A DNA stretch of 64,000 nt, from IMG/VR virus record IMGVR_UViG_3300045988_141197; one strand, written 5' to 3'. The DNA comes from a virus. A program made the translations under genes and the position numbers. Below the pieces are notes generated by a model. The model did not search any database. It was not told the DNA's origin and was given only the letters and a program-made list of their open reading frames with translations. This document shows positions 19,376-44,000 of this stretch, piece after piece. Position 1 is the first letter of the stretch. Every line of letters begins with the position of its first letter.

Positions 19376-20221
19376 ATGATAGGTTATATCTATATTACAA
19401 CTAATTTAATAAATAATAAGCAATATATAGGCAAAAGAATATCTAATGAATTCTTAGGTACAAAATATCTAGGATCAGGAGTACTTCTCAAAAAAGCTGT
19501 AAATAAATACGGCGAAAGCAATTTTCAAGTAAAGTTAATTGAAGAATGTAATTCAAGACAGCAACTCATTGAACGAGAAGTATACTGGATACAATATTAT
19601 AATGCAGTAAACAATGATATGTTTTATAACTTATCTTATGGCAACGAAGGTCATGCAGGTAAGGGTACTTATAAACATTCTGAAGAATGTAAAAGAAAAA
19701 TAAGTATTGCTAACTCAAATAAAGTTAGAACACTTAAGAGCAAACGTCAAATAGCAGTTACACTTAAAAATAAACATCGTTTTTGGATAACTGACAATAT
19801 AAAAGAAAAGTTAGTTGATGCTTCAGAATTTGAAAAATATAAAAATAAAGGTTTTATAAAAGGTCGTAAACCTGTAAGTCAGGAACAAAGAAATAAAATG
19901 TCTATAATAGCAATAAATAGAAATAAAAAGTTAACAAAGAATCAATTATGTAATATATATGGTCATAATAAAGGAAGAAAGACATCTGACGAAGTTAAAC
20001 ATAAAATTAGTCAAGCATTAAAAAGTAGAAATACTTGGTCTAAAAATAGAATTTGGGTTCACAAAGATAATGTAAAAACTCGAATTTATGAATATCAATT
20101 AGATAATTATTTATTAAATGGTTACCACAGAGGTATGTATAAAGATAAATGTAAAATATGTAGTTCAACGACTATCGAAAACACTTGTATAGAAGAAAAA
20201 TTTATACAAGGAAGTGAGTAG
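19376..20221 (+). CDS. GIY-YIG homing endonuclease with NUMOD3-like repeats
   Basis: N-terminal GYIYITTNLINNKQYIGK (GIY...YIG), conserved R, E and N residues. C-terminal repeats of the form GRK..S.E.K.KIS. A sigma70-like promoter lies upstream (ttgaca ... tagtataat). Confidence 0.75.
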   Translation: MIGYIYITTNLINNKQYIGKRISNEFLGTKYLGSGVLLKKAVNKYGESNFQVKLIEECNSRQQLIEREVYWIQYYNAVNNDMFYNLSYGNEGHAGKGTYKHSEECKRKISIANSNKVRTLKSKRQIAVTLKNKHRFWITDNIKEKLVDASEFEKYKNKGFIKGRKPVSQEQRNKMSIIAINRNKKLTKNQLCNIYGHNKGRKTSDEVKHKISQALKSRNTWSKNRIWVHKDNVKTRIYEYQLDNYLLNGYHRGMYKDKCKICSSTTIENTCIEEKFIQGSE

Positions 20222-20348: not shown

Positions 20349-21485
20349 ATGAACTTTAAAAGAGATGCTTTCAATATTGTATCATTAGCAATCCAAAATA
20401 CAATATTACCAGAAATCGTATCTGTACAACCAATGAGTACAGCAGCTCAATTATTACCATTACTAGAAATTAGATATGGAACAACTAAAGGTGCTGTTAC
20501 AGAAGGTGATCTAGTATTAGATTCAACAGGTATGGGAAGAACAGATAAAAATTATGATTCTAAAGTTGTTGAAAATCAAAAATTAACATCAGGAACAAAA
20601 GATATCGTAATTCCTTTCACACCAGTTGATGCTGGATCTTTCAAAGTAGTTAAAGGAACAACTGTTATCACAGATGACGGAAATGGAAATTTAACAGACG
20701 GTGGAAAAATTGATTATGCAAATGGTACAGTAACATTAAATACAGCATTAGATGCTGATGCATTAATGAGCTATACATATAACAATGCTGATGTACCAAC
20801 AACAGTTGGAGATATCACAATGGGAATTAACCCAGTTCTAATCGAAGCTGAAGAACACAAAATCAAAGCTGTATACGCTTTAACAGCTGCATACAGAATC
20901 AATAAAGAATATGGTGTAAATATGCCATTAGAATTTGAAAAACAAGTAGCTAACGAAATGAACAAAGAGAGAGAAAGAATCGTAATGGGAGATATCTTCG
21001 CTCAAGCTGCTGGTGGAAATTCAGTAATTTGGTCAGCTACACCAAGACCAGGTGTAAGTGATTCTGAACATGTAGAAAGTTTACCAATAGCTATTAACTT
21101 AGCTGCTGCTACAATCTACAACAGAACAAATGGTAACTTACAACCAAACTTTATAGTTGCTGGTGCAAACGTTATAGCTTACTTAGCTAAATCAAAAGTA
21201 TTTGAAGCAAACGAAGCTCCAAAAAATGGTGGATCTTTCGTAGCTGGTAAATTAGGTACTTTAACAGTATATCAAACACCTGCTATTGGAACAAATGACT
21301 TCTTCCTAGGAGCAATCGGAAATGACTTCTGGCAATCAGGATATGTTGTAGGTGATTATATGCCTATTACTTATACAACACCAGTTACATTAGCTGATTA
21401 TACTACTCAACAAGGATGGGTTTCTATCTATGGTAAGAAAATGGTTAATGCTAACCTATATATCAGAGGAAGAATTACAGTTTAA
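20349..21485 (+). CDS. major capsid protein (putative)
   Basis: 378 aa protein rich in G, A and T, downstream of the protease/scaffold gene and followed by a very strong terminator. No family-specific motif was verified. Confidence 0.5.
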   Translation: MNFKRDAFNIVSLAIQNTILPEIVSVQPMSTAAQLLPLLEIRYGTTKGAVTEGDLVLDSTGMGRTDKNYDSKVVENQKLTSGTKDIVIPFTPVDAGSFKVVKGTTVITDDGNGNLTDGGKIDYANGTVTLNTALDADALMSYTYNNADVPTTVGDITMGINPVLIEAEEHKIKAVYALTAAYRINKEYGVNMPLEFEKQVANEMNKERERIVMGDIFAQAAGGNSVIWSATPRPGVSDSEHVESLPIAINLAAATIYNRTNGNLQPNFIVAGANVIAYLAKSKVFEANEAPKNGGSFVAGKLGTLTVYQTPAIGTNDFFLGAIGNDFWQSGYVVGDYMPITYTTPVTLADYTTQQGWVSIYGKKMVNANLYIRGRITV

Positions 21486-21634: not shown

Positions 21635-23245
21635 ATGAAAGATATTTGTCCAATTTGTAAAAAAGAATTTGAATTAAGTAAAGATCAAATTAGAAGAAAG
21701 AAAAAAGATGAAAATGCTAAATTGTATTGTAGTTTCTCTTGTAGAAATAAAGGAATAGCTCTATCTAAAATACAAAAAAGGCCTATATTAAAGTGTGCTT
21801 ATTGTGGAAAAGAGTTTGAACCATCTAGAGATCAATTTACCAGATATAATAAAGATCCTGAAGCCAACTTCTTTTGTTGTAAAGGTCATGCTATATCTTA
21901 TGGTAGTACTAAAGTAGATTATGAAGAGAGATCTAAGAAAGTATCTAAATTAGCTAAAGATAAAGAATATATAGCAGCTCGAACAACTAAAGCTAAACAA
22001 ACCAATCTAGAAAGATATGGAGTTGAAAATCCATTTCAAGCAGAGGTATTTAAGAAAAAAGCAAAAGAAACTAAGTTAGAAAAATATGGAGACTCTAATT
22101 ATAATAATAGAAAGAAAATGTTTGAAACAATGAAAGAAAATGGATTTAATATTTATGCTCCTAGGCCTGAAGTTGGTAAAAAAGTTAGTAATACTTGGAA
22201 AAATAAATCTGAAGAAGAAAAACAAATTATTAAAAATAAGCTTTCAGTTGCTAATACTAAAGCACATAATGAAATGACTTTAAGTAAAAAATTGGAAATC
22301 TCAATCAAGCAATCACAATCACAAAAAATTCGATGGGATGAAACTTCAGAAGCTGATAAAGCTAAAATATTTCAAAAAGTATTTAATCATCCTAATAATT
22401 CCATAAATGTAATTTCTAAATTAAATAAAGATATAGCTTCACACTTAGATATAAATGAATTCGAGTTTCAACTAGGTAGATATAGTTATGATCTTAAAAA
22501 AGAGAATACTTTAATTGAAATAGATCCTACTTATACACATAATTGTTTACAGAGTACTTGGTATGGTAGTGCTCCAAAATCTAAAGAATATCATAGAGAT
22601 AAAACTCAATACGCTCTAGATAATAATTTTGATTGTATTCATATATTTGATTGGGATGATATAGATAAAATATCTTATTTATTGCAAGATAAACAATCTT
22701 TATATGCTAGACAATTAACTATAAAAAGTGTGACTATAAATGAATGTGATGAATTCTTAAATAATTATCATTTACAAAACACTTGTAGAGATCAAACTAT
22801 TAGATTTGGGTTATATTATAAAGATACTTTAATACAAATAATGACATTTGGTAAACCTAGATATAATAAAAATTATGAATGGGAATTATTAAGATTATGT
22901 ACTCATAAAGATTATAAAGTTGTAGGAGGGGCTGAAAAATTATTTAAACATTTTGTAGATATTATTTCTCCTGAATCTATTATATCTTATTGTGATTTTA
23001 GTAAATTTACTGGAGAAGTATATAATAGATTAGGATTTAAAAAACAGGGAATAGCTATACCTTCTAAACATTGGGTTAAAGGAGCTCAGCATATAACAGA
23101 TAATTTATTAAGACAAAGAGGATATGATCAATTATTTAATACAAATTATGGTAAGGGAACTTCTAATGAAGAATTAATGTTAGAAAACGGTTGGTTACCT
23201 ATATATGACTGTGGTCAATTAACTTTTATTTGGAGAAAGGAATAG
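21635..23245 (+). CDS. zinc-ribbon protein, possible nuclease / homing-endonuclease-like
   Basis: Two C-x2-C...C-x3-C units at the N-terminus. Repeated ERYGVENPF and EKYGDSNY segments. Function is unverified. Confidence 0.35.
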   Translation: MKDICPICKKEFELSKDQIRRKKKDENAKLYCSFSCRNKGIALSKIQKRPILKCAYCGKEFEPSRDQFTRYNKDPEANFFCCKGHAISYGSTKVDYEERSKKVSKLAKDKEYIAARTTKAKQTNLERYGVENPFQAEVFKKKAKETKLEKYGDSNYNNRKKMFETMKENGFNIYAPRPEVGKKVSNTWKNKSEEEKQIIKNKLSVANTKAHNEMTLSKKLEISIKQSQSQKIRWDETSEADKAKIFQKVFNHPNNSINVISKLNKDIASHLDINEFEFQLGRYSYDLKKENTLIEIDPTYTHNCLQSTWYGSAPKSKEYHRDKTQYALDNNFDCIHIFDWDDIDKISYLLQDKQSLYARQLTIKSVTINECDEFLNNYHLQNTCRDQTIRFGLYYKDTLIQIMTFGKPRYNKNYEWELLRLCTHKDYKVVGGAEKLFKHFVDIISPESIISYCDFSKFTGEVYNRLGFKKQGIAIPSKHWVKGAQHITDNLLRQRGYDQLFNTNYGKGTSNEELMLENGWLPIYDCGQLTFIWRKE

Positions 23246-23307: not shown

Positions 23308-23667
23308 GTGAAAGATATACAAGATATAACAATTAACTTAATAACAGAATCATTTAAAGGTGATGAAGAATTATTAGCTCAATTTAAAGAAAGAGCTCCA
23401 AAATTCTATAAAGTATGTAGTATGATAGAAGAATTAAATCATGATATAGAATTTAAACCTAATTATAGTGTAGATTCTAAACAAAATGGTACTTTTGAGG
23501 TTAATTTTACTGTTGGTTTATCTAATGGTTCTATAATTAAAGGTTATTTAAATTCTAATGGTATTTGTAAAATCAAACCTAGTAATTTTATTCTTAATGA
23601 TGATACTATAGAATATTTAACTGGTTTAAATAATATATTAAAAAATTTTGAAAAACATGCTTGGTAA
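23308..23667 (+). CDS. hypothetical protein
   Basis: GTG start after RBS aaaggag. Confidence 0.45.
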   Translation: MKDIQDITINLITESFKGDEELLAQFKERAPKFYKVCSMIEELNHDIEFKPNYSVDSKQNGTFEVNFTVGLSNGSIIKGYLNSNGICKIKPSNFILNDDTIEYLTGLNNILKNFEKHAW

Positions 23668-24119
23668 GGAGATATAATATGAATCTACAAGAAATATATA
23701 TTAAATTAAGAGAATCTGAAGTATTTCCAAATAGTAAAATTGATAGTATAGTTTATCATGGAACTAATAATCAATTTGATAAATTTGATGTAACACATAG
23801 AACTAATAATGGTAAAATGTATGGAAATGGAATTTATTTTACATCTGATTTAGATTATGCTAAAAAATATACCAAAAGTGGAACAATACTTAAAGGGTAT
23901 ATTAATATAGAAAATCCATTTTATATTGGTTATCAAGAAACTTTAGAATATGCTATTCGTAGAGAAAACCCTTATGAAGTAGCTGATATATATTCCAAGA
24001 ATACAATTGATCCTAAGAAAGTAACCTCTTATTTAATATCTAGAGGTTATGATGGAATTAATATAGAAGATAAGATATTTGTGATTTTTAGCGAAGATCA
24101 ATTTAGTAAAATTGATTAA
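23661..24119 (+). CDS. hypothetical protein
   Basis: ORF with RBS aaggag. Confidence 0.45.
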   Translation: MVRRYNMNLQEIYIKLRESEVFPNSKIDSIVYHGTNNQFDKFDVTHRTNNGKMYGNGIYFTSDLDYAKKYTKSGTILKGYINIENPFYIGYQETLEYAIRRENPYEVADIYSKNTIDPKKVTSYLISRGYDGINIEDKIFVIFSEDQFSKID

Positions 24120-26999: not shown

Positions 27000-27011
27000 A
27001 GGCAATATTTT

Positions 27012-27257
27012 ATGTTAAAAGAATGTGAGGATTGTATTTATAATACAACTACATTAGCTTGCTTTAATTGTAACGTCTATAAAGTAGATAAAGCAATAAC
27101 TAATATTAATAAATATATAAAAGAGGGAGATACAGGTAAATTTTTATTTCTCTTTAACAATAAATATAAAGACATAATTAATAATAATATAAATACTCAA
27201 ATGATAGAGTGTAAGTTTATATCAACAAAAAGAATCCAAAAAGAAAGCAGTTTTTGA
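27012..27257 (+). CDS. hypothetical Cys-rich small protein
   Basis: ORF from the six-frame track. Confidence 0.4.
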   Translation: MLKECEDCIYNTTTLACFNCNVYKVDKAITNINKYIKEGDTGKFLFLFNNKYKDIINNNINTQMIECKFISTKRIQKESSF

Positions 27258-27833
27258 TCATGTTAAATTTAATTGGGATTTATTATTATCAAAAGATCCA
27301 TCTAAAGAAATCTTATTTGATATAGTTTTGAAAATTAATCAACTATTAGATTATTTGCAAGAAAATGAATAAAACCCGTTGTATTTTTTAAAAACCTATA
27401 GTATAATTTAGGTAGGTGATACTTAATTGAATTTATATGATATCTATATTTTGTAAACCATTATATTTATATTATAATAATCACCACCACACTTTCAGTA
27501 TTATAGAATATATTTAAAACCTATTGCCAAGTAGATATAAATAATATATTCTATAATGCATATATTAATTTTTTAAATCTTATTATGTAAAATAATAATA
27601 AGAAAGGAGTTTGAATTACTATGAAATTATTTAACACATTACAAGAATTAATTAGCTTTATGTGGCCGGTACAATATAGTATCGTTTATTCATCATGCTT
27701 AATTAATAATGTTAAATAATAGTAATTAGAAAACTCAACTAAAATACTAAGCTATCTTATATTCCACACATAGATAGAAAACAGATTACTGGGAAGATAT
27801 ATTCTAATTACTAGAATATATCTTTTTATTTAC

Positions 27834-27912
27834 CTGGGAGTTGGGGAGTTGGTCACCCCGCCAGCTTTGGGAGCTGGAGAACTCGTGAGTTCGAATCTCA
27901 CCTCTCAGACCA
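27834..27912 (+). tRNA. tRNA-Pro (anticodon TGG)
   Basis: Manually folded cloverleaf. C1-G72 acceptor pair, D-arm gggg/cccc, anticodon loop tttggga, T-arm gtgag-ttcgaat-ctcac. CCA is encoded. Confidence 0.7.
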
Positions 27913-27954
27913 AAAATCTAGCAATATAATATAGAAGGGAGGAAGTTAAAAGTT

Positions 27955-28551
27955 ATGTTTAGGAAATTAAAAGATTGGAATTTTGAAAGAAAAATGGCTA
28001 ATCAGAGAAAAAAGAAAAAATTCGCTGATTGTGACTGTTGGGGAATGCATTATTGGCTTAGTGATACATTTGCAGACATGATATTAAATCTTCGTGATAT
28101 GAAACATGGTGCACCTGAGTTAGAATTTGAAGAATATAATACATTACCTGCAGAATGGTTAGATAAAGAATTAGCTATTTATAAAGAAAAACAAATTAAA
28201 GAAGGATATACATATGAAATAAATATATTCACTAAATGGTATATTATATTAACAAGAATAGCTTATTGTTTAAAACAAGCTAATGATGAAATAACTATTA
28301 TTGATAATGAATATAGAGAAGAATTTGACCGAGTTGTTTGGGGAGATGGATCTTTTTTAGATCATATGGTACCTTGTAAGTTTGATTCCCAAGGTAAACC
28401 TACTTGCTATGAACTAAAAACAAATGAACCTCCTGAAGAACTTAAAGAAAAATATTTTAATAGAGAACAAGAAATATTTGAATATAGAAATAAAATGAAA
28501 GATGAAGCATTTGATCTAATTAAAAAATATTTCTGGAATTTATGGGATTAA
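27955..28551 (+). CDS. hypothetical protein
   Basis: ORF with RBS gggagg. Confidence 0.45.
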   Translation: MFRKLKDWNFERKMANQRKKKKFADCDCWGMHYWLSDTFADMILNLRDMKHGAPELEFEEYNTLPAEWLDKELAIYKEKQIKEGYTYEINIFTKWYIILTRIAYCLKQANDEITIIDNEYREEFDRVVWGDGSFLDHMVPCKFDSQGKPTCYELKTNEPPEELKEKYFNREQEIFEYRNKMKDEAFDLIKKYFWNLWD

Positions 28552-28781
28552 TGAAAATAACAAAGAACAGATCTTAATAAGACATAAGATGTTATTAATA
28601 AATAAAGGAGCTTAATAATGAAAAAACTAATTTATTTTATAAAACAACTATTTTGTGATCATATTTATGGAGATGGTATAATGAACCCTTTTGTAGATCA
28701 ATATGGAAATCATTCAGCTGTTTACCTTGTATAAAATGTGGTCATAGAAAGTTTAAAACTTTTGAAAAGAAATAATTAAAT

Positions 28782-28871
28782 GACACAATGGCAGAGTTTG
28801 GTTTAATGCACCAGTCTTGAAAACTGGCAGTCGGAAACGGCTCGTAGGTTCAAATCCTACTTGTGTCGCCA
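28782..28871 (+). tRNA. tRNA-Ser (anticodon TGA), type II
   Basis: Acceptor gacacaa/ttgtgtc, anticodon stem ccagt/actgg with loop cttgaaa, long variable arm, T-arm gtagg-ttcaaat-cctac. CCA is encoded. Confidence 0.7.
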
Positions 28872-28896
28872 GAATAAATATTAAAGGAGTTATCAT

Positions 28897-29775
28897 TTGA
28901 GTGGGATCAATTTAAAAGAACAAGAATATAGCAGTAGTCAAAATGAACTAACTGTTGAAGATAAAGATAAAATATTAAGAATAGATAATAAATTACCTCA
29001 AATCATATTACCTCAATCTAAAATAGGAATGTTTATAGATTGGTATAATAATGATCTAAGATTATTAGGTACTTTACCTGAAGCTTATAATGAAGGTTAT
29101 TTAATTATTGAAAATGATATAATTCAAATTGATATTAGTAAACAGTCTGAATATATTAAAAGTTTAGCAAAACAGTTAAATGGTACATATCGTCAAGTTG
29201 AAAATCGTTTAAAATATTTTATAGAAGGTCTTGAAAAAGTTACTATGTATTTTAAATATGCTGATAATAATATACAGATTTGGTTATATGGTAAAGACAA
29301 TACTATTGTATCTAAAATATCATTTCAAGTGCAAGAAGGAGAAAATAGTTTAGTTGCTGATAGATATATAGATGAATTTACTAACTGGGATGATTTATTA
29401 AATGAATTTAATTTTTACTGTGTAATATTACTAACATCTAGTTTATGGTATATAGCTACTACAACAAAGACTACTAAATACTATTATGAAGAAAATAGAC
29501 CTAGATATACATATTCAGCTAATGAAAAATCTATAAAATCAATATCTAAACACAAGACTATAAATACACCTATTTATGATTTTAATAAGATTAAGAAAGT
29601 TAAAGTTGAAAGTCTAATTAAGAAAAGAAAAGGATGGACATATTCACATTCTTTTCAAGTACATGGACATTATAGACATTATAGTAATGGTAAAACTGTA
29701 TTTATTAATTCTTATATTAAAGGAAAAAATAAAGAACTACAAAGTCAAATAATAACATTAAATCCAAAGGAGTAA
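28897..29775 (+). CDS. hypothetical protein
   Basis: TTG start after RBS aaaggag. Confidence 0.4.
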   Translation: MSGINLKEQEYSSSQNELTVEDKDKILRIDNKLPQIILPQSKIGMFIDWYNNDLRLLGTLPEAYNEGYLIIENDIIQIDISKQSEYIKSLAKQLNGTYRQVENRLKYFIEGLEKVTMYFKYADNNIQIWLYGKDNTIVSKISFQVQEGENSLVADRYIDEFTNWDDLLNEFNFYCVILLTSSLWYIATTTKTTKYYYEENRPRYTYSANEKSIKSISKHKTINTPIYDFNKIKKVKVESLIKKRKGWTYSHSFQVHGHYRHYSNGKTVFINSYIKGKNKELQSQIITLNPKE

Positions 29776-29780
29776 TTAAA

Positions 29781-30128
29781 ATGATTAGTTTAGAACAATT
29801 AATGAAAGATTTAAAAAGAGAATTTATAGTAGATGAAACATTAAAAGCTTATTTATATGAAAATAAAATTGAGTTTGTTGATTATACTTCTCCTATAGAT
29901 TTAGAAAATGGAGATAAATTAGAAGATTTCTATGGTAATCTTTGTACTATATATCTTGATAAAGAGAACAAAATTTCAACTATAGAAAACTCTTGTATTA
30001 ATTTAATAACTCCTGTTAATGTAAAAGTTATAAATTTTCTAACTAGTTTAATTGGAGAAGAGATTGAAGCTTATGATCAATATCCTAAACTTCCTTCTAT
30101 TAGAGAATTAGATTGTAAAGAATTATAA
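29781..30128 (+). CDS. hypothetical protein
   Basis: ORF with RBS aaggag. Confidence 0.45.
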   Translation: MISLEQLMKDLKREFIVDETLKAYLYENKIEFVDYTSPIDLENGDKLEDFYGNLCTIYLDKENKISTIENSCINLITPVNVKVINFLTSLIGEEIEAYDQYPKLPSIRELDCKEL

Positions 30129-30173
30129 AAATATTAGACTTTTATTATTAACATGTTATATATTATATAATAT

Positions 30174-30259
30174 GGTGGAGTGGCCGAGTGGTTAAAGGTG
30201 GTAGTCTGTAAAACTATTCTCATACGAGTTCATAAGTTCAAATCTTATCTCCACCACCA
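30174..30259 (+). tRNA. tRNA-Tyr (anticodon GTA), type II
   Basis: Acceptor ggtggag/ctccacc, anticodon loop ctgtaaa, long variable arm, T-arm ataag-ttcaaat-cttat. CCA is encoded. Confidence 0.7.
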
Positions 30260-30416
30260 CTGAAAGAAGATAATTAGATTTAAGGTAATTGCAAGCCTTT
30301 AAGCAAACCTATTAATAATAATTGTGAGACTGGCCAGATATAGTCAATTTGAAATAGGAATAAAGATACCAAATATATTATCTTCTTTCTTCATTAATAA
30401 TTTGGAGGTAGAATAT

Positions 30417-30656
30417 ATGACATATACAGAATGGTTAGATAAAAATTGGGAAAAAGATAATATGTTTCCACCTTGTTTAGAACCTCAAGAAGCTTTATCA
30501 TTTTTAGAAAAATATTTATTAGGAGAAGATTATTATATAGTTAATCCTATGCCTAATATTCAAGCAAATTGTGAAGTTGTCCATGATATATTATATAAAT
30601 ATTCTAGAAAATATAGAAAAGAAGTAAAAGAAAGAAATAAAATAAGAAAGAAATAA
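30417..30656 (+). CDS. hypothetical protein
   Basis: ATG at 30417 after RBS ggaggtag. The ORF track extends the frame back to 30324. Confidence 0.4.
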   Translation: MTYTEWLDKNWEKDNMFPPCLEPQEALSFLEKYLLGEDYYIVNPMPNIQANCEVVHDILYKYSRKYRKEVKERNKIRKK

Positions 30657-30661
30657 TTTAT

Positions 30662-30735
30662 GCAGGTTTAGTGTAACGGCAGCACTTTGATCTCCAAAAT
30701 CAACAGTTATGGTTCAAATCCATAAACCTGTGCCA
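30662..30735 (+). tRNA. tRNA-Trp (anticodon CCA)
   Basis: Acceptor gcaggtt/aacctgt with a G1-U72 wobble. Anticodon stem ttgat/atcaa with loop ctccaaa. T-arm tatgg-ttcaaat-ccata. CCA is encoded. Confidence 0.65.
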
Positions 30736-30901
30736 AAGATCTTTTACTAGAGAAGATCTTTTCACTGTATGTAATTGATTGTTCATTTTACCTATAAGAA
30801 GGACTCACCTCCTTTCTGGAAAAATGAGAGAAGATGAAGAAGAATATAGATATTATATAATTTGTTTCTAGTGCTTATTATATAATATCAAAACTTTATA
30901 T

Positions 30902-30978
30902 AGCGATATAGCATAGTTGGCTAATGCAGGGCGTTCATACCGCCAAGATCATTGGTTCGAATCCAATTATCGCTACCA
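30902..30978 (+). tRNA. tRNA-Met/Ile2-type (anticodon CAT)
   Basis: Acceptor agcgata/tatcgct, D-stem gcat/atgc, anticodon loop ttcatac, T-arm attgg-ttcgaat-ccaat. CCA is encoded. Confidence 0.65.
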
Positions 30979-31250
30979 CTGGGGTTCGGTTATATCTGTT
31001 GCAATGAAGTGCAAAATGCTAGCATTGTTCCTTCGTAACGGATGAAAAAAGATCTTATATATGACACCGATATAGACGCCTCGGCCCAGTTCGTACCGCC
31101 TCACTCTTTAGGTACCCTACAGGAATTTGTGAGGTCATAACTGTAGGTCAGGTGTACACGGCAACTTTGTCTCGCGTAAACGTTGTGTTGAGCAAGAAGT
31201 ACATTAAGAAGCAACGTGACTGCTAGGAGAGACTAGCAAAATATTATTTA
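30979..31250 (+). ncRNA. GC-rich structured-RNA candidate (unknown class) or leader of the flotillin gene
   Basis: ~270 nt at roughly 45-50 % GC against a ~28 % background. Several complementary pairs are visible: cctcac/gtgagg, ctacag/ctgtag, aacgttg/caacgtg, plus palindromes ggtacc and gtgtacac. No ORF is present. Confidence 0.3.
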
Positions 31251-31267
31251 TTCGGAGGTAGAGATAA

Positions 31268-32737
31268 ATGATAACCTTAATCATTGTTGTAGCAGTGATT
31301 ATAATTCTTACAATATTCTTATTTATGAGCTATGTTAAATGTCCACCAGATATGGTTTATTTAATATCAGGTCTAAAGAAAGAACCTAGAGTTATAATAG
31401 GAAAAGCTGCTTTAAGAGTTCCATTTTTTGAAAGAGTGGATAAACTAACTCTTGAGTTAATACAAATAGATGTAAAAACGTCAAGAGTACCTACAGCTGA
31501 TTTCATTAATGTAGATGTAGATGCTGTAGCAAATGTTAGAATTCCTAACAATCCTGAATTAATACAAGTTGCAGCTAGACATTTTTTGAATCAAGATTCA
31601 AATTATATAGCTAGAAATGTACAACAAGTATTAGAAGGAAATATGAGGGAAATAATTGGACAAATGAATTTAAAAGAATTAGTTAATAATAAACAATTAT
31701 TTTCTCAAAAAATTCAAGAAAATGCAAAAGATGATATCAATAATATAGGATTAGAAATTGTTAACTTAAATGTTCAAAGCTGTACTGATGAAAATAATGC
31801 TATAAATGATTTAGGTATAGATAATTTATCTAAAATCCAAAAAGATGCAAAAATTGCAAAAGCTGAAGCTGATAGAGATGTTCAAGTTGCACAAGCTAAA
31901 GCGGCTAAAGAAGGAAATGAAGCTGATGCACAAGCTAAAGCTGAAATAGCAAAACAAAATAAAGATTTAGCTTTAAAACAATATGAGTATCAAATTGAAC
32001 AAGATAAGAAAAAAGCTGAAGCTGATACAATATATGAAATCCAAAAAGCTGAGAGACAAAAACTAATTAATGAAAATACAGTACTTGCAGAAGTTGCTAA
32101 AACTGAAAAAGAAACTGAATTAAAAGAAAAACAAGTTGCTTTAAGAGAAAAACAATTAGATGCAGAAGTTAGAAAAACAGCTGATGCGGAAAAATATAAA
32201 GCTGAAGTAGAAGCTGAAGCTCAAAAGCAAGTAACAATACAAAGAGCTCAAGCTGAATTAGAAAAAGCTAAACAAGAGGCTCAAGCTAAGATAGAAATCG
32301 CAAAAGCTAATAAAGAAGCAGCAACTCTAGAGGCTGAAGCAATTAAAGCAAAAGCATTAGCTGAAGCTGAAGGAATAAAAGCTAAATTAGAAGCTGAAGC
32401 TGCTGGTATAGAAGCAAAAGGTATAGCAGAAGCAAAAGGTATTGAAAAGAAGGCTGAAGCTCAAGCAAAAATGCAACAAGCATCAGTAGTAGAAATGATT
32501 ATTAATAAATTACCTGATATTGCTAAAGAAGTATCAACTCCTTTATCTAATATTGATAGTATTACAATGTATGGTGATCAATCAACCCAACTTGTGGAAA
32601 ACAATACACAAAAAATTGATAAAATTTTAAAAGTAGCTCAAGATAGTTTAGGTATTGATTTAAAATCAATAATTGCAGGTTATGCTGTTGGTAAATTAGG
32701 TAATAATCAAAAAGATAATAATAAAGAAGAAGAATAA
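31268..32737 (+). CDS. floT: flotillin (FloT/YuaG-type SPFH domain protein)
   Basis: N-terminal transmembrane segment and SPFH domain. Ala/Glu/Lys-rich coiled coil with AEAEA repeats. C-terminal LPDIAKEVSTPLSNIDSITMYG matches the FloT LP..AK....PLSNIDKITV motif. Confidence 0.85.
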   Translation: MITLIIVVAVIIILTIFLFMSYVKCPPDMVYLISGLKKEPRVIIGKAALRVPFFERVDKLTLELIQIDVKTSRVPTADFINVDVDAVANVRIPNNPELIQVAARHFLNQDSNYIARNVQQVLEGNMREIIGQMNLKELVNNKQLFSQKIQENAKDDINNIGLEIVNLNVQSCTDENNAINDLGIDNLSKIQKDAKIAKAEADRDVQVAQAKAAKEGNEADAQAKAEIAKQNKDLALKQYEYQIEQDKKKAEADTIYEIQKAERQKLINENTVLAEVAKTEKETELKEKQVALREKQLDAEVRKTADAEKYKAEVEAEAQKQVTIQRAQAELEKAKQEAQAKIEIAKANKEAATLEAEAIKAKALAEAEGIKAKLEAEAAGIEAKGIAEAKGIEKKAEAQAKMQQASVVEMIINKLPDIAKEVSTPLSNIDSITMYGDQSTQLVENNTQKIDKILKVAQDSLGIDLKSIIAGYAVGKLGNNQKDNNKEEE

Positions 32738-32768
32738 AATTTAGTGGGTGAAACTCCCGCTACTATAT

Positions 32769-32844
32769 TGAGGTATAGCCAAGCGGTAAGGCAATGGGTT
32801 TTGATCCCATGATTTCCTAAGTTCGAATCTTAGTACCCCAACCA
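32769..32844 (+). tRNA. tRNA-Gln (anticodon TTG)
   Basis: Very similar to Firmicute tRNA-Gln (tagccaagcggtaaggca D-arm). Anticodon stem atggg/cccat with loop ttttgat. T-arm ctaag-ttcgaat-cttag. One A-C mismatch in the acceptor stem. Confidence 0.65.
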
Positions 32845-32848
32845 ATAT

Positions 32849-33219
32849 AGTTCCTTAGCTCAGTAGGTTAGAGCGCTGTGTTTTTAAATTATTAAGAGGA
32901 ATAAAGTATGTTTAAATGTATATGTAATAGAGAGTTTTTAACACAAAATGGTCTTAATAGTCATAAAGGTAAATGTTCTGTTGTAAAACCTGATTTTATA
33001 CTTGATGATATATACATTGAAATAAAAGGTTACTTTACTGAAAAAGATAAAGCTAAAATTGACCAATTTCCTTATAAGATAAAAGTATTATTTAAGGAAG
33101 ATATGAAATTATATTTAGATTATGTGAAATCTAAATATGGTAAAACATTTTATAATTTATATACACCTAAAACTTTAATAATTTAAAATCAATTGGTTCG
33201 ATTCCAATAGGAACTACCA
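32849..33219 (+). tRNA. split / interrupted tRNA gene (5' half 32849-~32886, 3' half ~33187-33219)
   Basis: The 5' segment agttcct-ta-gctc-agtaggtta-gagc has a perfect acceptor strand and D-arm. The 3' segment attgg-ttcgatt-ccaat-aggaact-a-cca has a perfect T-arm and a complementary acceptor strand. The two are separated by ~310 bp containing ORF 32908-33186. No matching 3' anticodon-stem strand was found. Confidence 0.45.
32908..33186 (+). CDS. small Zn-finger protein inserted in split tRNA, possible (D/E)xK nuclease
   Basis: C-x-C...H-x4-C N-terminus followed by LDDIYIEIKGY (D...E-I-K motif). RBS aagagg upstream. Confidence 0.4.
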   Translation: MFKCICNREFLTQNGLNSHKGKCSVVKPDFILDDIYIEIKGYFTEKDKAKIDQFPYKIKVLFKEDMKLYLDYVKSKYGKTFYNLYTPKTLII

Positions 33220-33341
33220 GAGGCTGGGTAGCTCCCAGATATGCGCGAGTATAAAGACGAGGCACCTCCGTTGAAAATAAAATTAAAACCTCGTACATTA
33301 TAATAGTGCTTTAACTGATTATTATAAAAGGAGATATTACA

Positions 33342-33704
33342 ATGGATAAATTTGCATTTGATTGGTTTCAAAAACAACTAGATAAAAGAAAAGAACCTAA
33401 AAAGTATTTATTATGGATAGATGATTTAAGACCTATACCAAATCATTATATTGATAATTATCATATAGTTACAGCTAGATCTTATAATGAAGCTATCCAT
33501 GAATTACATAGATTTAGATATAATATAATTTGTTTAGATCATGATTTGGGAGAAGAAAAAACAGGATATGATGTTTGTAAATACATTATAGAAAATAATA
33601 TCCCTTGTGATGAATATAGAATTCATACAAGTAATCCTGTTGGTAGAAAGAATATGACTGATCTTTTATCAAGATATACAAATGCTATTATAAGACAATG
33701 TTAA
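33342..33704 (+). CDS. CheY-like receiver-fold protein (atypical)
   Basis: LLWIDD acidic pair, LDHDLG putative phospho-acceptor Asp, HTSNP, K. Confidence 0.3.
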   Translation: MDKFAFDWFQKQLDKRKEPKKYLLWIDDLRPIPNHYIDNYHIVTARSYNEAIHELHRFRYNIICLDHDLGEEKTGYDVCKYIIENNIPCDEYRIHTSNPVGRKNMTDLLSRYTNAIIRQC

Positions 33705-33890
33705 AAAATATATGGAGGGGTAGTTTAAATAAAACGAATAGTCTGATAAACTATAACTATTATACTATATAATCCGGATATATAGATTAAATATAATAGT
33801 GGTAATAAGAAACTATATCAATTGCAAGCCTTATTACTTGATATGGATAATAGGTGAAACTTAAATTCCATCCCCTTACAATTTAATAAA

Positions 33891-34118
33891 GTGAGTGATA
33901 ATATGGAAGAAAATTTATATGATAAACAATGTATTATGTGTGGTAAGATATATACCAGTAAAGGTAAAGCTCCTGTAGGTGAATGTCCTGAATGTCTATC
34001 TAAAGAAGAATATTTCTGTAATAGATGTGGTCAACCAATTGACTATTGGGAATATAATAATAGTGTAGAGGGCTATTGTGAAGATTGTTTGGAAGAGGAA
34101 GAGCTAGAAAATGAATAA
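33891..34118 (+). CDS. small zinc-ribbon protein
   Basis: CIMCG...CPEC and CNRCG...CEDC motifs. Confidence 0.45.
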   Translation: MSDNMEENLYDKQCIMCGKIYTSKGKAPVGECPECLSKEEYFCNRCGQPIDYWEYNNSVEGYCEDCLEEEELENE

Positions 34119-34283
34119 TAAAGAAAAATTACCAAAATATGTAAATAGTGATTGGAAGAATAAAGGATTAAAAGCATTTATTTTATTTATAATGCTACTT
34201 ATAGAACTTCCATTCATACCATTTGTATATTTATGGGCTTGGATAGATGATATAAGAGATAAGTTCAAAAAATCTTAATCTAT

Positions 34284-34353
34284 GGTCATATAGTTTAATG
34301 GTAAAACATACTACGTAATGTAGATAGATAATGGTTCGATTCCATTAAGACCT
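34284..34353 (+). pseudogene. tRNA-like element / degenerate tRNA
   Basis: Good D-arm (gttt-aatggta-aaac) and T-arm (aatgg-ttcgatt-ccatt). The anticodon region folds only as ctac-gtaat-gtag with a 5-nt loop, and the acceptor stem has a mismatch. Confidence 0.3.
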
Positions 34354-34581
34354 GAAAAAGTGCTTTAGTGTATTGAGTACATAACAGAAAATACACAAAT
34401 CAATTAAAATAATTGGAGAACTTATATACTAACAGTTTAATCTCCTAAAAAACTTTATAGATATGTATAGAAGTGAGTTAGTACAGAGTATTCTATACGA
34501 AGGTAATGTCCACTCTATTGTACTTGAAAGTTAATTGTTTATGAAAGTACAAAATAAATATTATCATTTGGAGGTAATCAA

Positions 34582-34893
34582 TTGAATAATACTATTGAAC
34601 TTAAAGATATAATTATTATTAGCAATAATAAAATATTTAACAATATAATCAATTATAATACAACTTTTGAATCTTTATATGCATGGATAGGGGATAATAC
34701 TAGGTATAAACTTGGGAAAATTTATGATACTATTACCATAAAAAAGAATTATATAAAAAATATAGCTATGTTAAATGAATCTATTTCAACCTTTATTATT
34801 TTTAACTGTGCTTATAATCAAAAAATTATTAAATATTATGATACTAATAAAGAAGCCTATAGTGCTTATAAAATGTATCAGCAATTAATATAA
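34582..34893 (+). CDS. hypothetical protein
   Basis: TTG start after RBS ggaggtaa. Confidence 0.35.
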   Translation: MNNTIELKDIIIISNNKIFNNIINYNTTFESLYAWIGDNTRYKLGKIYDTITIKKNYIKNIAMLNESISTFIIFNCAYNQKIIKYYDTNKEAYSAYKMYQQLI

Positions 34894-35002
34894 TCTATAT
34901 AGGTGTTTTGGACTGATAGATATATCCTGTTCTGTTCGACTCAGAGTAATAATGTTGGAACTGTAAAAAATCAGATCGTTACTGATTGCCTATATTTTAT
35001 AT

Positions 35003-35091
35003 GTCAAGATGGGTGAGTTGGTTTAAACCAGTTGTCTACTAAACAACCGAAGTGTAAGCTTCCGTGAGTTCGAATCTCACTCTTGACGCCA
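35003..35091 (+). tRNA. type-II tRNA, Ser-like, anticodon ACT (unusual A34)
   Basis: Acceptor gtcaaga/tcttgac, anticodon stem gttgt/acaac with loop ctactaa, long variable arm, T-arm gtgag-ttcgaat-ctcac. CCA is encoded. Confidence 0.55.
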
Positions 35092-35097
35092 TAATAT

Positions 35098-35184
35098 GCA
35101 GATGTGGTGAAATTGGCAAACACACAGGACTTAAAATCCTGCGAGGTAAAACTCTTGTCGGTTCAAGTCCGACTATCTGCACCA
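35098..35184 (+). tRNA. tRNA-Leu (anticodon TAA), type II
   Basis: Acceptor gcagatg/tatctgc, anticodon stem cagga/tcctg with loop cttaaaa, long variable arm, T-arm gtcgg-ttcaagt-ccgac. CCA is encoded. Confidence 0.7.
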
Positions 35185-35201
35185 ATATATTATAAATAAT
35201 A

Positions 35202-35233
35202 AAAGAGATATTTTAATATATCTCTTTATTTTT
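35202..35233 (+). terminator. rho-independent terminator
   Basis: Hairpin aaagagatattttaatatatctcttt followed by a T-run. Confidence 0.65.
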
Positions 35234-35424
35234 ATGCAAAAATTATAATTCTTTAGGTAAAATAATATTAGAAGCTAATCAAAGATATTGATTTGTTTTT
35301 ATATCTTTTAAATTAAGCTTCTATTTTTAAGTGATATATAATTTATCATTTTTCAAATAAAAATCGTTTAAAATCGATTTATGTGCGAAATAAAAGCATA
35401 ATTTTTATAAAGGAGGAATTATAA

Positions 35425-35616
35425 ATGGCTAAATTTGGTAAATCTAAAGTTGAGACAGAAGAAAATAAAAATGAAGAGGTTGTAGAAAAAACTACTAAAG
35501 TTGAAGAACCTAAAGTAGAACAACCAAAAGTTGAAGAACCTAAAGTTGAAAATGAGAAAGCTAAAGAGGTTACAAAAGTTGTAAAACCTGAAAGTTTAGC
35601 AGATTTTCTATTTTAA
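35425..35616 (+). CDS. small repeat protein (EEPKVE repeats)
   Basis: ORF with RBS aaggagg; internal PKVE(E/Q) repeats. Confidence 0.4.
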   Translation: MAKFGKSKVETEENKNEEVVEKTTKVEEPKVEQPKVEEPKVENEKAKEVTKVVKPESLADFLF

Positions 35617-35772
35617 GTTAGTAAAATATTATCAAGATAGAAATATCTTGAGGTAGATAATATTTTAATAAAAACTTATCTCTTTATATATCTTTTGTCG
35701 AAAGACTAATCAGAAAATAAAGAGGAAAATTGGACTCAAAACCAATATTATTATTTAAAGGAGGTATGTGCA

Positions 35773-35979
35773 ATGAAGAAAGATTTAACTACACCAAAAA
35801 CAGTTACACTTAAAAATGTTGGAACTGAAGAAGTTGGATTTAGATATTTCAGAGTAAACTTTGTAGAAGTTTTACAACCTGCTGATGAAGTTGTTTTAAC
35901 AGCTGCATCAAGTGAAGAAGCAGCTTACTATTTAGCTTTAGCAGATGCTACAGTTGGATTAGAAGTAAAAGTTGCTTAA
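35773..35979 (+). CDS. hypothetical small protein
   Basis: ORF with RBS aaggagg. Confidence 0.45.
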   Translation: MKKDLTTPKTVTLKNVGTEEVGFRYFRVNFVEVLQPADEVVLTAASSEEAAYYLALADATVGLEVKVA

Positions 35980-36096
35980 TTAATTTAAGGTATTAAGTAT
36001 AAAATAATATAAACTTAATATATGTAATGGTAAGTCGAGATTCTACCTCCTCGATACTGCCATTACATCTTAATAAAAATAGTATGGAGGTAATAT

Positions 36097-36849
36097 ATGG
36101 AAGAGAATGAAAATTTAGATCCTATATATAAAGATAATGCTTTAACAAAACCCCGTACTTACCCTCGTATGAAGAAAAGAATGAAAAGAATTGTTCAATA
36201 TATAGAAAATCAATTAGGTGGTCAAGTATTAGATCTTGAATTAACTCCTGAGCAGATTAAACAAATAGTTGAGCAAGCTTTTGAGGAAATAGTTCATTAT
36301 ATGACTGATACTTATACTGTTACAGTTCCTTATTCTAATTGTATAGATTTATCTAAATATAATATAGATAATGTAGAATCAGTTATGAGAGCTCAAGATA
36401 GTATAATGACAGGAATTCCTTTTACAATTCCTGCAATGAATTTAATGAATGTTACAGGTATGTATAACATTGAAGATTATACAAATGCCTTATTAATAAA
36501 AAGAAATTTAAATATCTTATCTACAGATATGGATTTTGTATGGGATAAACCTAATCAAAAATTATATATAACAGCTAATCCTAATGCACCTAGTAAAGTT
36601 ACTATTAATTTTAAACCAGAATATTATTCAGTGGAAGATATAAGAGAACAATATTGGGATACTCAACTTAGGAAATTAGCTTTAGGTATGTGTAAAGTTA
36701 TATTAGGTAGAATACGTAGTAAATATAAATCAAGTTCATCTAAATTTCAATTAGATGGTGACCAATTATTAGCAGAAGGAAATGCAGAAATCCAATCTGT
36801 TAGACAATTTTTAGATGATAATAAAGATATATTTACAGTATTAAATTAA
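36097..36849 (+). CDS. hypothetical structural protein (neck / tail-completion candidate)
   Basis: ORF two genes upstream of the sheath gene; RBS tggagg. Confidence 0.35.
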   Translation: MEENENLDPIYKDNALTKPRTYPRMKKRMKRIVQYIENQLGGQVLDLELTPEQIKQIVEQAFEEIVHYMTDTYTVTVPYSNCIDLSKYNIDNVESVMRAQDSIMTGIPFTIPAMNLMNVTGMYNIEDYTNALLIKRNLNILSTDMDFVWDKPNQKLYITANPNAPSKVTINFKPEYYSVEDIREQYWDTQLRKLALGMCKVILGRIRSKYKSSSSKFQLDGDQLLAEGNAEIQSVRQFLDDNKDIFTVLN

Positions 36850-41056: not shown

Positions 41057-41079
41057 AAGATATCTTGGAGGTAGAAATA

Positions 41080-44000
41080 TTGAAAGAAGATAAAAACCAA
41101 AATTTAGATGTACTATCTACTTTGACTAATGAGGAAAAATTAAAAGTCAAAGAGATATTAGCACAAATATCAGATAAGGGTAAATCTAAAGAATTAGATA
41201 ATTTATATTACGATGATTATGAAGAAATACCTGTAGATCTTGAAACTTTTTTAAGTAATGATTTATATTTAGGTAATTACACAAATCATGGTAAAGATAT
41301 TTATGAAACATGGAAAAAAGAATTAGCATATGTTCATAATCCTGCAACTTTTTGCGATCAGTGGGCTATTACAGGAAGTACAGGAACAGGTAAAGCAAGT
41401 CCATTAAGATCAAAAGTTTTTACAGCTAATGGTTATATAAAAATGGGAGATATACAGATAGGCACTAAAGTTATAAATGGAAAAGGGTATGAAACAGAGG
41501 TTACGCATATATATCCACAAGGTAAATTACCTGTTTACAGAATAACTTTTTCTGATAGGACATATATAGAATGCGCGGATAATCATTTATGGCAGGTAAC
41601 TGAATATGGCAAAGGTAGAGCTAAAGAAAATTTAGTATTAAATACTCTACAATTAAAAGAAAATTTAAATAAAGGTTATAAGTATAGAATACCTTTAGCT
41701 GTAATAGATTGTTGGAATAGTGATACTGAAATAGATCCTTACTTATTGGGATGTTTAATTGGTGATGGATGTTTACAAACTGATAGTATATCTATTTGTA
41801 CTCCTGAGCAAGATATAAAAATAAAAATAGAAAATATTGTTACTTCAATGGGATATAGCTTCAATTATATTGCTCGAGATAGTTATGGCATTCGTGCCAA
41901 TGGTAAATTTGGATTTAACAGTAATAAAGGCAGTATTAACCCTTTAAAAGATTATCTTAATTCTTTAGGATTACTATGTAAATCGGTGGATAAACATATT
42001 CCAAAAGAATATTTATATACTACTGTAGAAAATAGAATAAAATTATTACAAGGATTATTTGATACAGATGGGTGGGTTTGTAATAATGGAAAGGCTAGAT
42101 CAGTATTGATATGGAATACTTCTAGTCCTCAACTTTCTGAAGATTTTGCATTTTTAGTAAGATCTTTAGGCGGAACTGACACTGTAGTTAGAAAAAAAGC
42201 AAAATATTGTACAAAAAATTCTAAAGATTATATAGAATGTAATGATTCATATCAACATACCATAAAATTTAGCAATGATATATTACCTTTTAGCTCTAAT
42301 AAACATAAATCCAAGTATATAGAACCTCAAAATAAAGCTATTCGTAGGATTATAAATATTGAACATATAGGTGAGGAAGAATGTCAGTGTATTGTTGTGA
42401 AAAGTGACGATCATACATATTTAATGGATAATTTAACTGTAACTCATAATTCAACAGTATCTACTTATTCTTTATGCTATGAGTTATATAAGTTAATGTG
42501 TTTAAAAAATCCTAATAGATTTTATCTAGATGCTAATGAAACTATATGGATTTTATTCTTTAACCTTAATTTAAAATTAGCTGAAAAGACAATGTGGGGT
42601 AAATTTCAAAAAGCTTTACAAATGTCTCCTTGGTTTATGGAAAGAGGAACTGTAACGGGTAGAACAAATTTAGTTTATCAACCTAATAAAGATATTAAAT
42701 TAGGTATAGGATCTACTGAAGAACATGCATTATCTGTAGCTGTTATGTTTTGTGCTATAGATGAGATGTCTTTTGGAGATAACGATAATGTAGAATATAT
42801 GCAAGCAGGTATGATGCAGATATATAATCAGTTATATCTACGTCTATCTTCTCGTTTTTCTAAAGCAGGTAGAATACAAGGTAGAATGTATTTAATTTCA
42901 TCGGCTAAATCAACTAATGCTGTATTAGAATCATTTATTAGAGATAATGAAGGACAACCTGGAATGCATGTATCTAGATATAAACAATGGGAAGTATTAC
43001 CTGCATCTAAATTTTCTGGTAAGTGGTTTAAATTAGCTGTAGGAAATGAATTATTATCTAGTTATATAATGGGTACTAATGTAACAGATGAACAAGTAAA
43101 AGAAGCTGAAGAACAAGGTTATCAGGTTATTGATGTTCCTTTAGAAACGTTACATAGATTTGAAATGGACTTAAATAGAACATTAATAGATACATGTGGT
43201 ATTTCTGTTCAATCAAGTTATAAATACATTCCATATAGAATAGTTGAACCTTGTATTGGTAATGGTTCTAATCCTTTTAAAGATGAAATTATTAAAACAG
43301 GATTAAAGGATAAATTACAGATAAAGGACTTCTTTATATCAGAACTTGTTCCTGAAATGTTATATTCTAAAAAATTATATATTCATTGCGACTTATCAAA
43401 ATCAGGAGACATGACAGGTATAAGTGCTGTAGCTGTATTAGGTTACAAAAATCAAGAAAGATATGATGATACAGGTCAAACTAATACATTAAAAGAAATT
43501 GTATTTCGTCATGTATTTTCAGTTGGATTACAATGCCCACCTAATGATGAGTTAAGTATGATTAAGGTCAAGGACTTTCTTCATTATTTAAAATATGACT
43601 TAGGATGGAATATAGCAGGAGTAAGCTGTGATGGTTATCAATCCCTGATGTTATTACAAAGTTTACAATTAGATGGTTTCACTGTAAAAGAAGTATCTAT
43701 GGATATTATAAAAAATAAAGAATGTGTAGGCTACACAGCATTTAGAAATGTACTTGTAGAGCAAAGAATTAAATTATTAAAATTACATACATTATTAAAA
43801 GAAATAACAAATTTAGAAAAGAATGATACTACTGGAAAAGTAGATCACCCAAAGCAATGTTTAATAGGTGATACTAAAATTAAAATGTTGGATGGTAAAT
43901 CTAAAACAATATTAGAATTATTAAGTGATTATGAAAATAATATACCTAATTATGTATATACTTTTAATGAAAAAACTTTGAAAATAGAGCCTAAATTAAT

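Follow-up and report, generated by a model that had tools for sequence, protein, structure and literature searches.

A predicted full-length flotillin carried by large T4-like phages of the gut

Why would a large tailed phage encode a flotillin, and what could such a protein do in an infected cell? The question is raised by an open reading frame (ORF) at positions 31268-32737 (+) of IMGVR_UViG_3300045988_141197, a 64,000-nt stretch of DNA that was analysed as a whole and is referred to here as the window. The window is part of a T4-like myovirus genome of about 200 kb from the human gut, and the ORF starts with ATG and encodes 489 amino acids (aa) followed by a stop codon. A preliminary description, made from the nucleotide sequence, had proposed a FloT-type flotillin within a tRNA island. 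From its Band_7 and Flot domains, a full-length match to a FloT model, its similarity to human flotillin-1 and its substitution pattern, we conclude on sequence grounds that the ORF encodes a full-length, true flotillin of the long FloT-like kind, and that the gene is phage-encoded.

The N-terminal anchor, SPFH/band-7 domain and long coiled coil that had been described for the 489-aa product were all recovered by hydropathy, Pfam searches and residue composition. The predicted membrane anchor (aa 1-22; 31268-31333, +) is the sole hydrophobic segment of the protein, extending from residue 1 to about residue 22 with a Kyte-Doolittle 19-residue maximum of 3.34 and a predicted helix at residues 2-22. 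It may be a hairpin or a membrane-spanning helix, and because Lys and Arg come after it, the bulk of the protein is predicted to be cytoplasmic. Cys25 (31340-31342), directly after the anchor, and Cys172 (31781-31783) are invariant across the phage flotillin clade; Cys25 at least is not conserved in the wider flotillin alignment. The anchor is followed by the SPFH (Band 7) region (aa 23-200; 31334-31867, +), in which Pfam Band_7 (PF01145) matched aa 48-202 with an E-value of 1.9e-23 and 83.8 bits against a cut-off of 23.6. The next segment (aa 201-395; 31868-32452, +) is assigned as coiled coil 1 (CC1), the presumed wall of a dome, from its composition, predicted helices and alignment with CC1 of flotillin-1; Ala, Glu, Lys and Gln make up 66% of its roughly 190-200 residues, and Pro is absent. 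Two long helices are predicted at residues 186-299 and 307-422. Coiled coil 2 (CC2) and the roof motif of the C-terminal domain (aa 396-440; 32453-32587, +), with the sequence LPDIAKEVSTPLSNIDSITMYG, align with flotillin-1 residues 308-385, and within this motif L415, P416, P425, L426, I432 and T433 are invariant across the phage copies. The C-terminal motif INKLPDIAKEVSTPLSNIDSITMYG aligns with its counterpart in human flotillin-1 in the phmmer search and matches by eye MIPELAKQISIPLQNIDKLTVID of Shimazuella FloT, a genuine bacterial FloT. The Pfam Flot family (PF15975, flotillin C-terminal) matched aa 377-435 marginally, with 27.5 bits against a gathering cut-off of 27.0; relatives of the phage flotillin also match this family, in some cases strongly. 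A Shine-Dalgarno sequence, GGAGG (31254-31258, +), could be read 9 nt 5' of the ATG. It is unchanged in five related phages, in which the 30 nt directly 5' of the ATG are near-invariant.

Profile searches, which the preliminary description had named as the check on its family assignment, placed the protein in the SPFH/flotillin family through the Band_7, Flot and flotillin-1 matches. The NCBIfam FloT model (NF058507) was matched over positions 3-475 of 477 (E 6e-78), but with 263 bits against an equivalog cut-off of 700 bits, while the HflC model (TIGR01932) gave 29.2 bits against a cut-off of 134.4. In each of the six bacterial loci checked, the flotillin gene is directly preceded by an NfeD-type gene, and none was detected in the window or in any phage locus searched, including 79 IMG/VR loci, with a custom six-sequence hidden Markov model of limited sensitivity. 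The earlier designation as FloT-type is thus borne out as far as a long FloT-like protein that matches the model over its full length is concerned; the low score and the lack of NfeD speak against a FloT in the narrower sense. Among solved structures, the best phmmer matches were human flotillin-1 and flotillin-2 of the 44-mer dome (9bq2, 9l3g; E 2e-58 and 1e-41). The flotillin-1 match (9bq2_B/9l3g_A, E 2e-58) covers aa 23-332 and 362-439 of the phage protein, comprising the SPFH region, the coiled coils and the roof motif, so that the colinear order SPFH1-SPFH2-CC1-CC2-C-terminal domain of the solved flotillin complex is present. In that complex CC1 forms the wall of the dome, and CC2 and the C-terminal domain form a beta-barrel roof (PMC13000311). 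An AlphaFold2 monomer model served for secondary structure and as a Foldseek sanity check alone. Its predicted secondary structure agrees with that of flotillins, its top Foldseek matches were again 9bq2 and 9l3g, and the modelled SPFH region resembled the Band 7 domain of flotillin-2 (1win) with a target-normalised TM-score of 0.76, the scores for SPFH domains being 0.76-0.85.

Relatives of the gene are common in large phages, and strong purifying selection indicates that it is functional. More than 120 clusters (at 90% identity) contain proteins that are at least 72% identical to the flotillin of the window. Across the phage copies, the ratio of nonsynonymous to synonymous substitutions (dN/dS) is 0.06-0.28 at a dS of 0.5-1.1, with synonymous sites near saturation. 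The most constrained parts are the SPFH region (76-94% identity) and the roof motif (71-98%), and the least constrained part is the anchor (24-59% identity between phage copies); to bacterial FloT, the phage SPFH region is about 30% identical. A profile scan of IMG/VR yielded at least 197 flotillin-encoding stretches, from which 80 loci on contigs of 50-424 kb were kept, 79 of them new. All 79 new loci carry a flotillin (77 ORFs of 456-545 aa and two truncated ones), and many viral copies in IMG/VR are 40-49% identical to that of the window. In this 40-49% clade several neighbours recur (an AAA_33 kinase-like protein, PIN_4, a zinc ribbon and a metallophosphatase), which look more like lineage synteny than like functional partners.

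The genomic context is that of a phage. The window has 27% G+C, carries nearly all its genes on one strand and encodes a tail-fibre-like protein, a prohead protease, a Gp23-type major capsid protein, a tail sheath and a T4 gp13-like protein, with hallmark phage genes on both sides of the flotillin gene. Seven contigs carry a flotillin identical to that of the window, and at the five places inspected, which stem from independent gut assemblies, the gene neighbourhood is the same; one contig with the identical protein is 201 kb long and has the Gp23 and T4 gp13 families on either side. At 8.4%, the G+C content at third codon positions (GC3) of the flotillin gene lies within the range of the window's phage genes (mean 11.3%, standard deviation 2.8). 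Contamination and mis-assembly are excluded because an identical protein occurs in the same phage context in independent assemblies and has a phage-like GC3, and the earlier attribution of the gene to the phage rather than to contaminating host DNA therefore stands: five or more assemblies made independently join it on one contig to the same phage genes. A suspicion of host DNA, faulty assembly or a decaying, functionless passenger could draw on the typically cellular nature of flotillins and on the deposition of some flotillin-bearing phage contigs as bacterial metagenome-assembled genomes (MAGs), but it is scarcely credible given the full-length ORFs in 77 of the 79 further viral loci, a dN/dS far below 1 and the absence of NfeD and of bacterial genes nearby. 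As to such deposits (L-numbers are our labels for the related loci and contigs that were compared), CACYRE010000001.1 (L006/L035, 124.8 kb), filed as a bacterial MAG, proves to be the genome of a T4-like phage and codes for a portal, an S77 protease and Gp23, and JAFRAK010000039.1 and JAFQXM010000001.1 (L007 and L009; 132 kb), likewise deposited as MAGs, carry a flotillin of the phage clade.

Sequence comparison between loci indicates that the flotillin gene is a mobile accessory cassette, exchanged among diverged T4-like phages of gut and rumen. Across diverged phage lineages, flotillin identity is 66-91% against 26-40% for core genes; over the best aligned block (about 287 aa) the flotillins are 77-91% identical, compared with 35-40% for the prohead protease and about 26% for the terminase. 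At most loci, none of the other genes in the 8 kb to the left and right of the flotillin is similar to any part of the 64-kb window, and L019 and L017 share 90% nucleotide identity in the flotillin gene while their neighbouring genes are unrelated or shuffled. At least three different contexts were distinguished: between gp23 and gp13 inside the tRNA island in phages of about 200 kb, between nucleotide-metabolism genes and the portal gene in T4-like phages of 120-130 kb, and among DNA ligase and deaminase genes in a third group. Among bacterial FloTs of named isolates, identity to the phage protein reaches 34% in the nearest ones; the tier of 40-48% identity (representatives of 50% clusters) consists of unnamed metagenome proteins, one of them from a Coriobacteriia MAG. 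Horizontal acquisition, which had been suggested from the flanking tRNA genes, is thus supported in the form of exchange among phages. As a mark of recent capture from a host, the tRNA flanks carry no weight, and such a capture was rejected in view of the phage-like GC3, the near-saturated synonymous sites and the 34% identity to the nearest FloTs from named isolates.

As to what the protein does, the best overall explanation, to which we give somewhat better than an even chance, is a functional flotillin owned by the phage that forms a membrane dome and serves the upkeep of the host membrane. The strong Shine-Dalgarno site would ensure that the flotillin is made during infection, and the N-terminal hydrophobic segment would insert it into the host cytoplasmic membrane. 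There it would self-assemble as a large homo-oligomeric dome, with the SPFH region on the membrane, the coiled coil as the wall and the LP...PL...IT motif in the roof, and would fence off a nanometre-scale patch of membrane without NfeD. From homology to the solved complexes, membrane insertion and assembly of an SPFH-type dome enclosing a membrane patch are quite probable. The dome might then keep the host membrane organised and intact through the takeover, and so provide, from a phage gene, what host flotillins do under envelope stress; the latter are part of membrane-stress and organisation networks (PMC8581546, PMC8844932, PMC4312047). Maintenance and reorganisation of the host membrane during takeover is our leading reading of the physiological role, at clearly less than an even chance.

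Several observations weigh against this explanation. The AlphaFold2 model, built from an alignment of 27 phage-clade sequences, is of low confidence (mean predicted local distance difference test score 58.7), and the host of the phage is uncultured. A flotillin acting without NfeD could have a different mode of action, since bacterial SPFH proteins normally pair with NfeD, and the very high conservation of the SPFH region in the phage copies points to a specific partner more than to a general action on the membrane. In close relatives found via gp13 (65-79% identity), no flotillin was detected within about 10 kb of gp13; of these, L049, L050 and L055 have no flotillin in the equivalent tRNA island but retain the island and a cREC gene, and L055 also the Thoeris inhibitor Tad8. 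Because close relatives lack the gene at the equivalent position, the flotillin is probably not essential.

The genes around the flotillin could point to a different role. In the window, a gene for Tad8, a type II Thoeris inhibitor (30417-30656, +; PF25189, 83.1 bits, E 1.2e-23), lies 0.6 kb upstream of the flotillin gene, and a gene for a cREC_REC protein, with a receiver domain linked to cyclic-phosphate processing (33342-33704, +; PF20274, 86.7 bits), lies downstream, a position kept in related phages of about 200 kb; it is possibly another gene countering nucleotide-signal defence. In L023, the flotillin gene is followed at a distance of 0.3 kb by Tad8 (3488-3745, 99 bits). In the 120-130 kb phages L035, L036, L039 and L022, a Tad2-like gene (84.9 bits) ends 13 nt before the flotillin start or overlaps it, that of L035 (9733-9987) adjoining the flotillin gene, and the unrelated contig L119 has two Tad2-like genes (3010-3381 and 1929-2225), one of them 39 nt upstream of a flotillin that is 42% identical to that of the window. 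The Tad2-like genes beside flotillin score 61-85 bits. This recurrence in several independent arrangements would fit a dedicated counter-defence function, in which a flotillin cage sequesters, excludes or blunts membrane-anchored abortive-infection effectors such as ThsA, or seals the damage, beside the Thoeris inhibitors. The type II Thoeris effector ThsA is a Macro-TM protein anchored in the membrane that needs its transmembrane helices for defence (bioRxiv 10.64898/2026.01.22.701046), and the authors of the cryogenic electron microscopy work propose that flotillin domes sequester membrane proteins (PMC13000311). The argument is nevertheless one of guilt by association, as accessory genes of every function gather in variable regions. 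No Tad gene lies close to the flotillin in about two thirds of the phage loci, Tad8 remains in the L055 island without a flotillin, and the flotillin itself matched none of the PADLOC models (0 families at E up to 0.1) and no anti-defence family. Moreover, in one studied type II Thoeris system the membrane was not depolarised (bioRxiv 10.64898/2026.01.22.701046). We regard a dedicated counter-defence function as the main rival, though an unlikely one, at perhaps a fifth of our belief, and give slightly less to the broader proposition that phage flotillins are widespread, NfeD-independent viral membrane cages, co-inherited with Tad8 or Tad2-like genes, that serve counter-defence by corralling effectors or sealing membranes.

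Two further roles would also make use of a membrane scaffold. The flotillin might set the timing of lysis by corralling holins or other lysis proteins, or exclude superinfecting phages by corralling host membrane proteins that incoming DNA needs. T4-type phages invest in membrane proteins for lysis inhibition and exclusion, which, with a membrane scaffold coming from a lytic-looking T4-like phage and a presence/absence polymorphism that fits a competition trait, counts in favour of this possibility. It is improbable all the same, as no recognisable holin or endolysin gene adjoins the flotillin gene, the M23-type peptidase gene of the window being 23 kb off, and no context conserved across lineages ties flotillin to lysis genes. 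More doubtful still is an HflK/C-like modulation of a host membrane protease such as FtsH, by which phage proteins would be protected or proteolysis redirected. Membership in the SPFH family, the HflK/C-FtsH cage structures 7wi3 and 9cz2 among the Foldseek matches and the strong conservation of the SPFH region, suggestive of a specific conserved partner, agree with it, but the score of the HflC model is far below its cut-off (29 against 134 bits), the architecture with its long CC1 is flotillin-like and not HflK/C-like, and HflK/C faces the periplasm whereas the bulk of the phage protein is predicted to be cytoplasmic.

The tRNA genes reported to flank the flotillin gene were confirmed by ARAGORN and Rfam, with a tRNA-Met (CAT) upstream (30902-30978, +), 290 nt from the flotillin gene, and a tRNA-Gln (TTG) downstream (32769-32844, +), 32 nt from it. 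They belong to an island of nine tRNAs, eight of which were found by ARAGORN and the ninth (34284-34353, +) by Rfam with 37 bits, having been missed by ARAGORN. The tRNA-Ser at 35003-35091 (+) has the unusual anticodon ACT, which is also present in L055. Near the flotillin gene of relatives, ARAGORN reported a suppressor tRNA ('tRNA-Stop') as well as a tRNA that it assigned to no amino acid (L022, 7264-7334; L007/L009, 7869-7955); the suppressor tRNA may reflect stop-codon reassignment in some relatives.

The preliminary description also gave the flotillin gene a GC-rich 5' leader of its own. The spacer at 30979-31267 does have 43% G+C against 27% in the window. A search of 27000-36500 against Rfam with E up to 0.1 gave no match in this spacer, and the spacer folds no better than shuffled sequence (z -0.45), for which reasons a riboswitch-like leader is not supported. 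The spacer holds a conserved GC-rich element of about 100 nt (31135-31245, +) that ends in a hairpin (31221-31238), three pairs of whose stem covary. With nhmmer and a covariance model this element was matched only in the window, L017, L018, L019 and L037, and the covariance model retrieved no copies outside its source sequences and duplicates of two of those contigs. Its upstream neighbour is tRNA-Trp in every case but that of the window, where it is tRNA-Met; in L019 the element has tRNA-Glu on its other side and is located 1 kb 3' of the flotillin gene. The conserved core is hence independent of the flotillin gene and is better described as belonging to the tRNA array than as specific to that gene; candidate functions are those of a small RNA or of a module through which the tRNA transcript is processed or terminated. 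The T4 late-promoter motif TATAAATA showed marginal enrichment only and did not occur in the spacer upstream of the flotillin gene, and scans for sigma-70 promoters and terminators remained at chance level.

Other genes of the window give some indications of the host and lifestyle of the phage. The nearest cultured relatives of the capsid protein, at about 30% identity, come from large myoviruses of Listeria, Bacillus and Streptococcus, and MAGs labelled 'Erysipelotrichaceae' or 'Bacilli' include contigs of related phages; a low-GC species of the Bacillota is the probable host. Dockerin type I repeats were detected in the phage protein encoded at 50828-52720 (+; 90 bits, four stretches) and, below threshold, in that at 57677-59863 (+; 22 bits), which hints, as a clue to the host, that the phage may bind cohesins on cellulosome-bearing Clostridia such as Ruminococcus. 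A protein with an ART-PolyVal ADP-ribosyltransferase domain (23661-24119, +) and a 715-aa protein with an LPD11 domain (14676-16823, +) carry modules typical of 'polyvalent' proteins, a class that phages and conjugative elements introduce into cells. The gene for the terminase large subunit (41065-45390, +; 1441 aa) is interrupted by an intein splicing domain and a LAGLIDADG homing-endonuclease domain, and two free-standing homing endonucleases of the GIY-YIG type (19376-20221, +) and the HNH/DUF7487 type (21635-23245, +) bracket the Gp23-like major capsid gene (20349-21485). In the ORF at 5901-7598 (+), TATAAATA occurs at 6708, 6843, 6975, 7110 and 7242 (range 6708-7249); with this spacing of 132-135 nt, the virion structural protein encoded there would contain tandem repeats about 45 aa long. 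A near-identity DNA search of the 15 kb around the flotillin gene against INPHARED returned nothing related, the sole match being a 55-nt tRNA-like stretch.

The role of bacterial flotillins is still debated. The strong purifying selection on the phage gene, its passage between lineages and the lack of NfeD argue that the scaffold alone gives a selectable benefit in infection. An NfeD-less phage flotillin is therefore a compact experimental handle on the candidate roles of flotillins in membrane integrity, membrane-protein sequestration and resistance to membrane-acting abortive infection, and its repeated adjacency to Thoeris inhibitors provides a concrete hypothesis. If flotillin cages did serve counter-defence, a viral SPFH protein would for the first time have a defined role, and a natural minimal system would be at hand for asking what bacterial flotillins do. 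The gene can also serve to recognise T4-like phages of gut and rumen Bacillota, a large and abundant group with some members filed as bacterial MAGs.

The protein family itself is well known, and the Joint Genome Institute already labels some of these proteins 'flotillin'. GenBank holds precedents in at least two gut phages with genomes of 121-151 kb: csAssE-Sib encodes a 'flotillin family protein' (WOZ57345.1; OR575929) that is 31% identical to the protein of the window over the aligned parts, and the 121-kb phage MT835492 has an unannotated full-length flotillin ORF of 517 aa that is 49% identical over the aligned parts. Both represent phage lineages and gene contexts different from those of the window. 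Full-text literature searches found no study of phage-encoded flotillins and none that discusses the csAssE-Sib or MT835492 copies; the prevalence, conservation and mobility of flotillins in large phages and their company of Thoeris inhibitors are not described in the literature searched, which also records a prophage integrating into floA. A phage-borne SPFH domain is likewise found in the PHROG_200 'lipoprotein' of the N4-like phage GIB1, mentioned in a passing remark with its role not known (PMC13239085). The window protein matched PHROG_200 with 45 bits over aa 2-247 (profile positions 81-336 of 379), the remainder lying outside the match; unlike that protein, it adds the full flotillin coiled coil and C-terminal domain and has, by eye, no lipobox before Cys25.

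Among cellular SPFH systems, E. coli QmcA-YbbJ (8z5g) and HflK/C-FtsH (7wi3) share the SPFH fold and belong to the same cage-forming family, but matched weakly (QmcA E 3e-4, HflC 29 bits), and the phage protein differs from them in the lack of NfeD and in a much longer coiled coil. Bacterial FloT (B. subtilis YuaG, NF058507) is closer. It is of the same length class (about 510 aa compared with 489), has the same succession of anchor, PHB/SPFH domain and EA-rich coiled coil, shares the C-terminal LP..A...S.PL.NID.IT motif and has a model that is matched end to end. The phage protein nevertheless stays below the 700-bit cut-off and is 34% identical to FloTs from named Bacillales isolates, and its gene has no upstream NfeD/YuaF, is carried by a lytic-type phage and is exchanged between phages. 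With the dome of human flotillin-1 and flotillin-2, it shares the order of SPFH region, long CC1, CC2 and C-terminal domain and the conserved roof motif. It differs in its hydrophobic N-terminal anchor, where a hairpin and acylation have been reported for the human proteins (PMC4312047), and in having Ala178, as counted from the alignment, at the position of the regulatory Tyr160. Encoded by a single gene, the phage flotillin would presumably form a homo-oligomer, in contrast to the alternating hetero-oligomer of the human dome.

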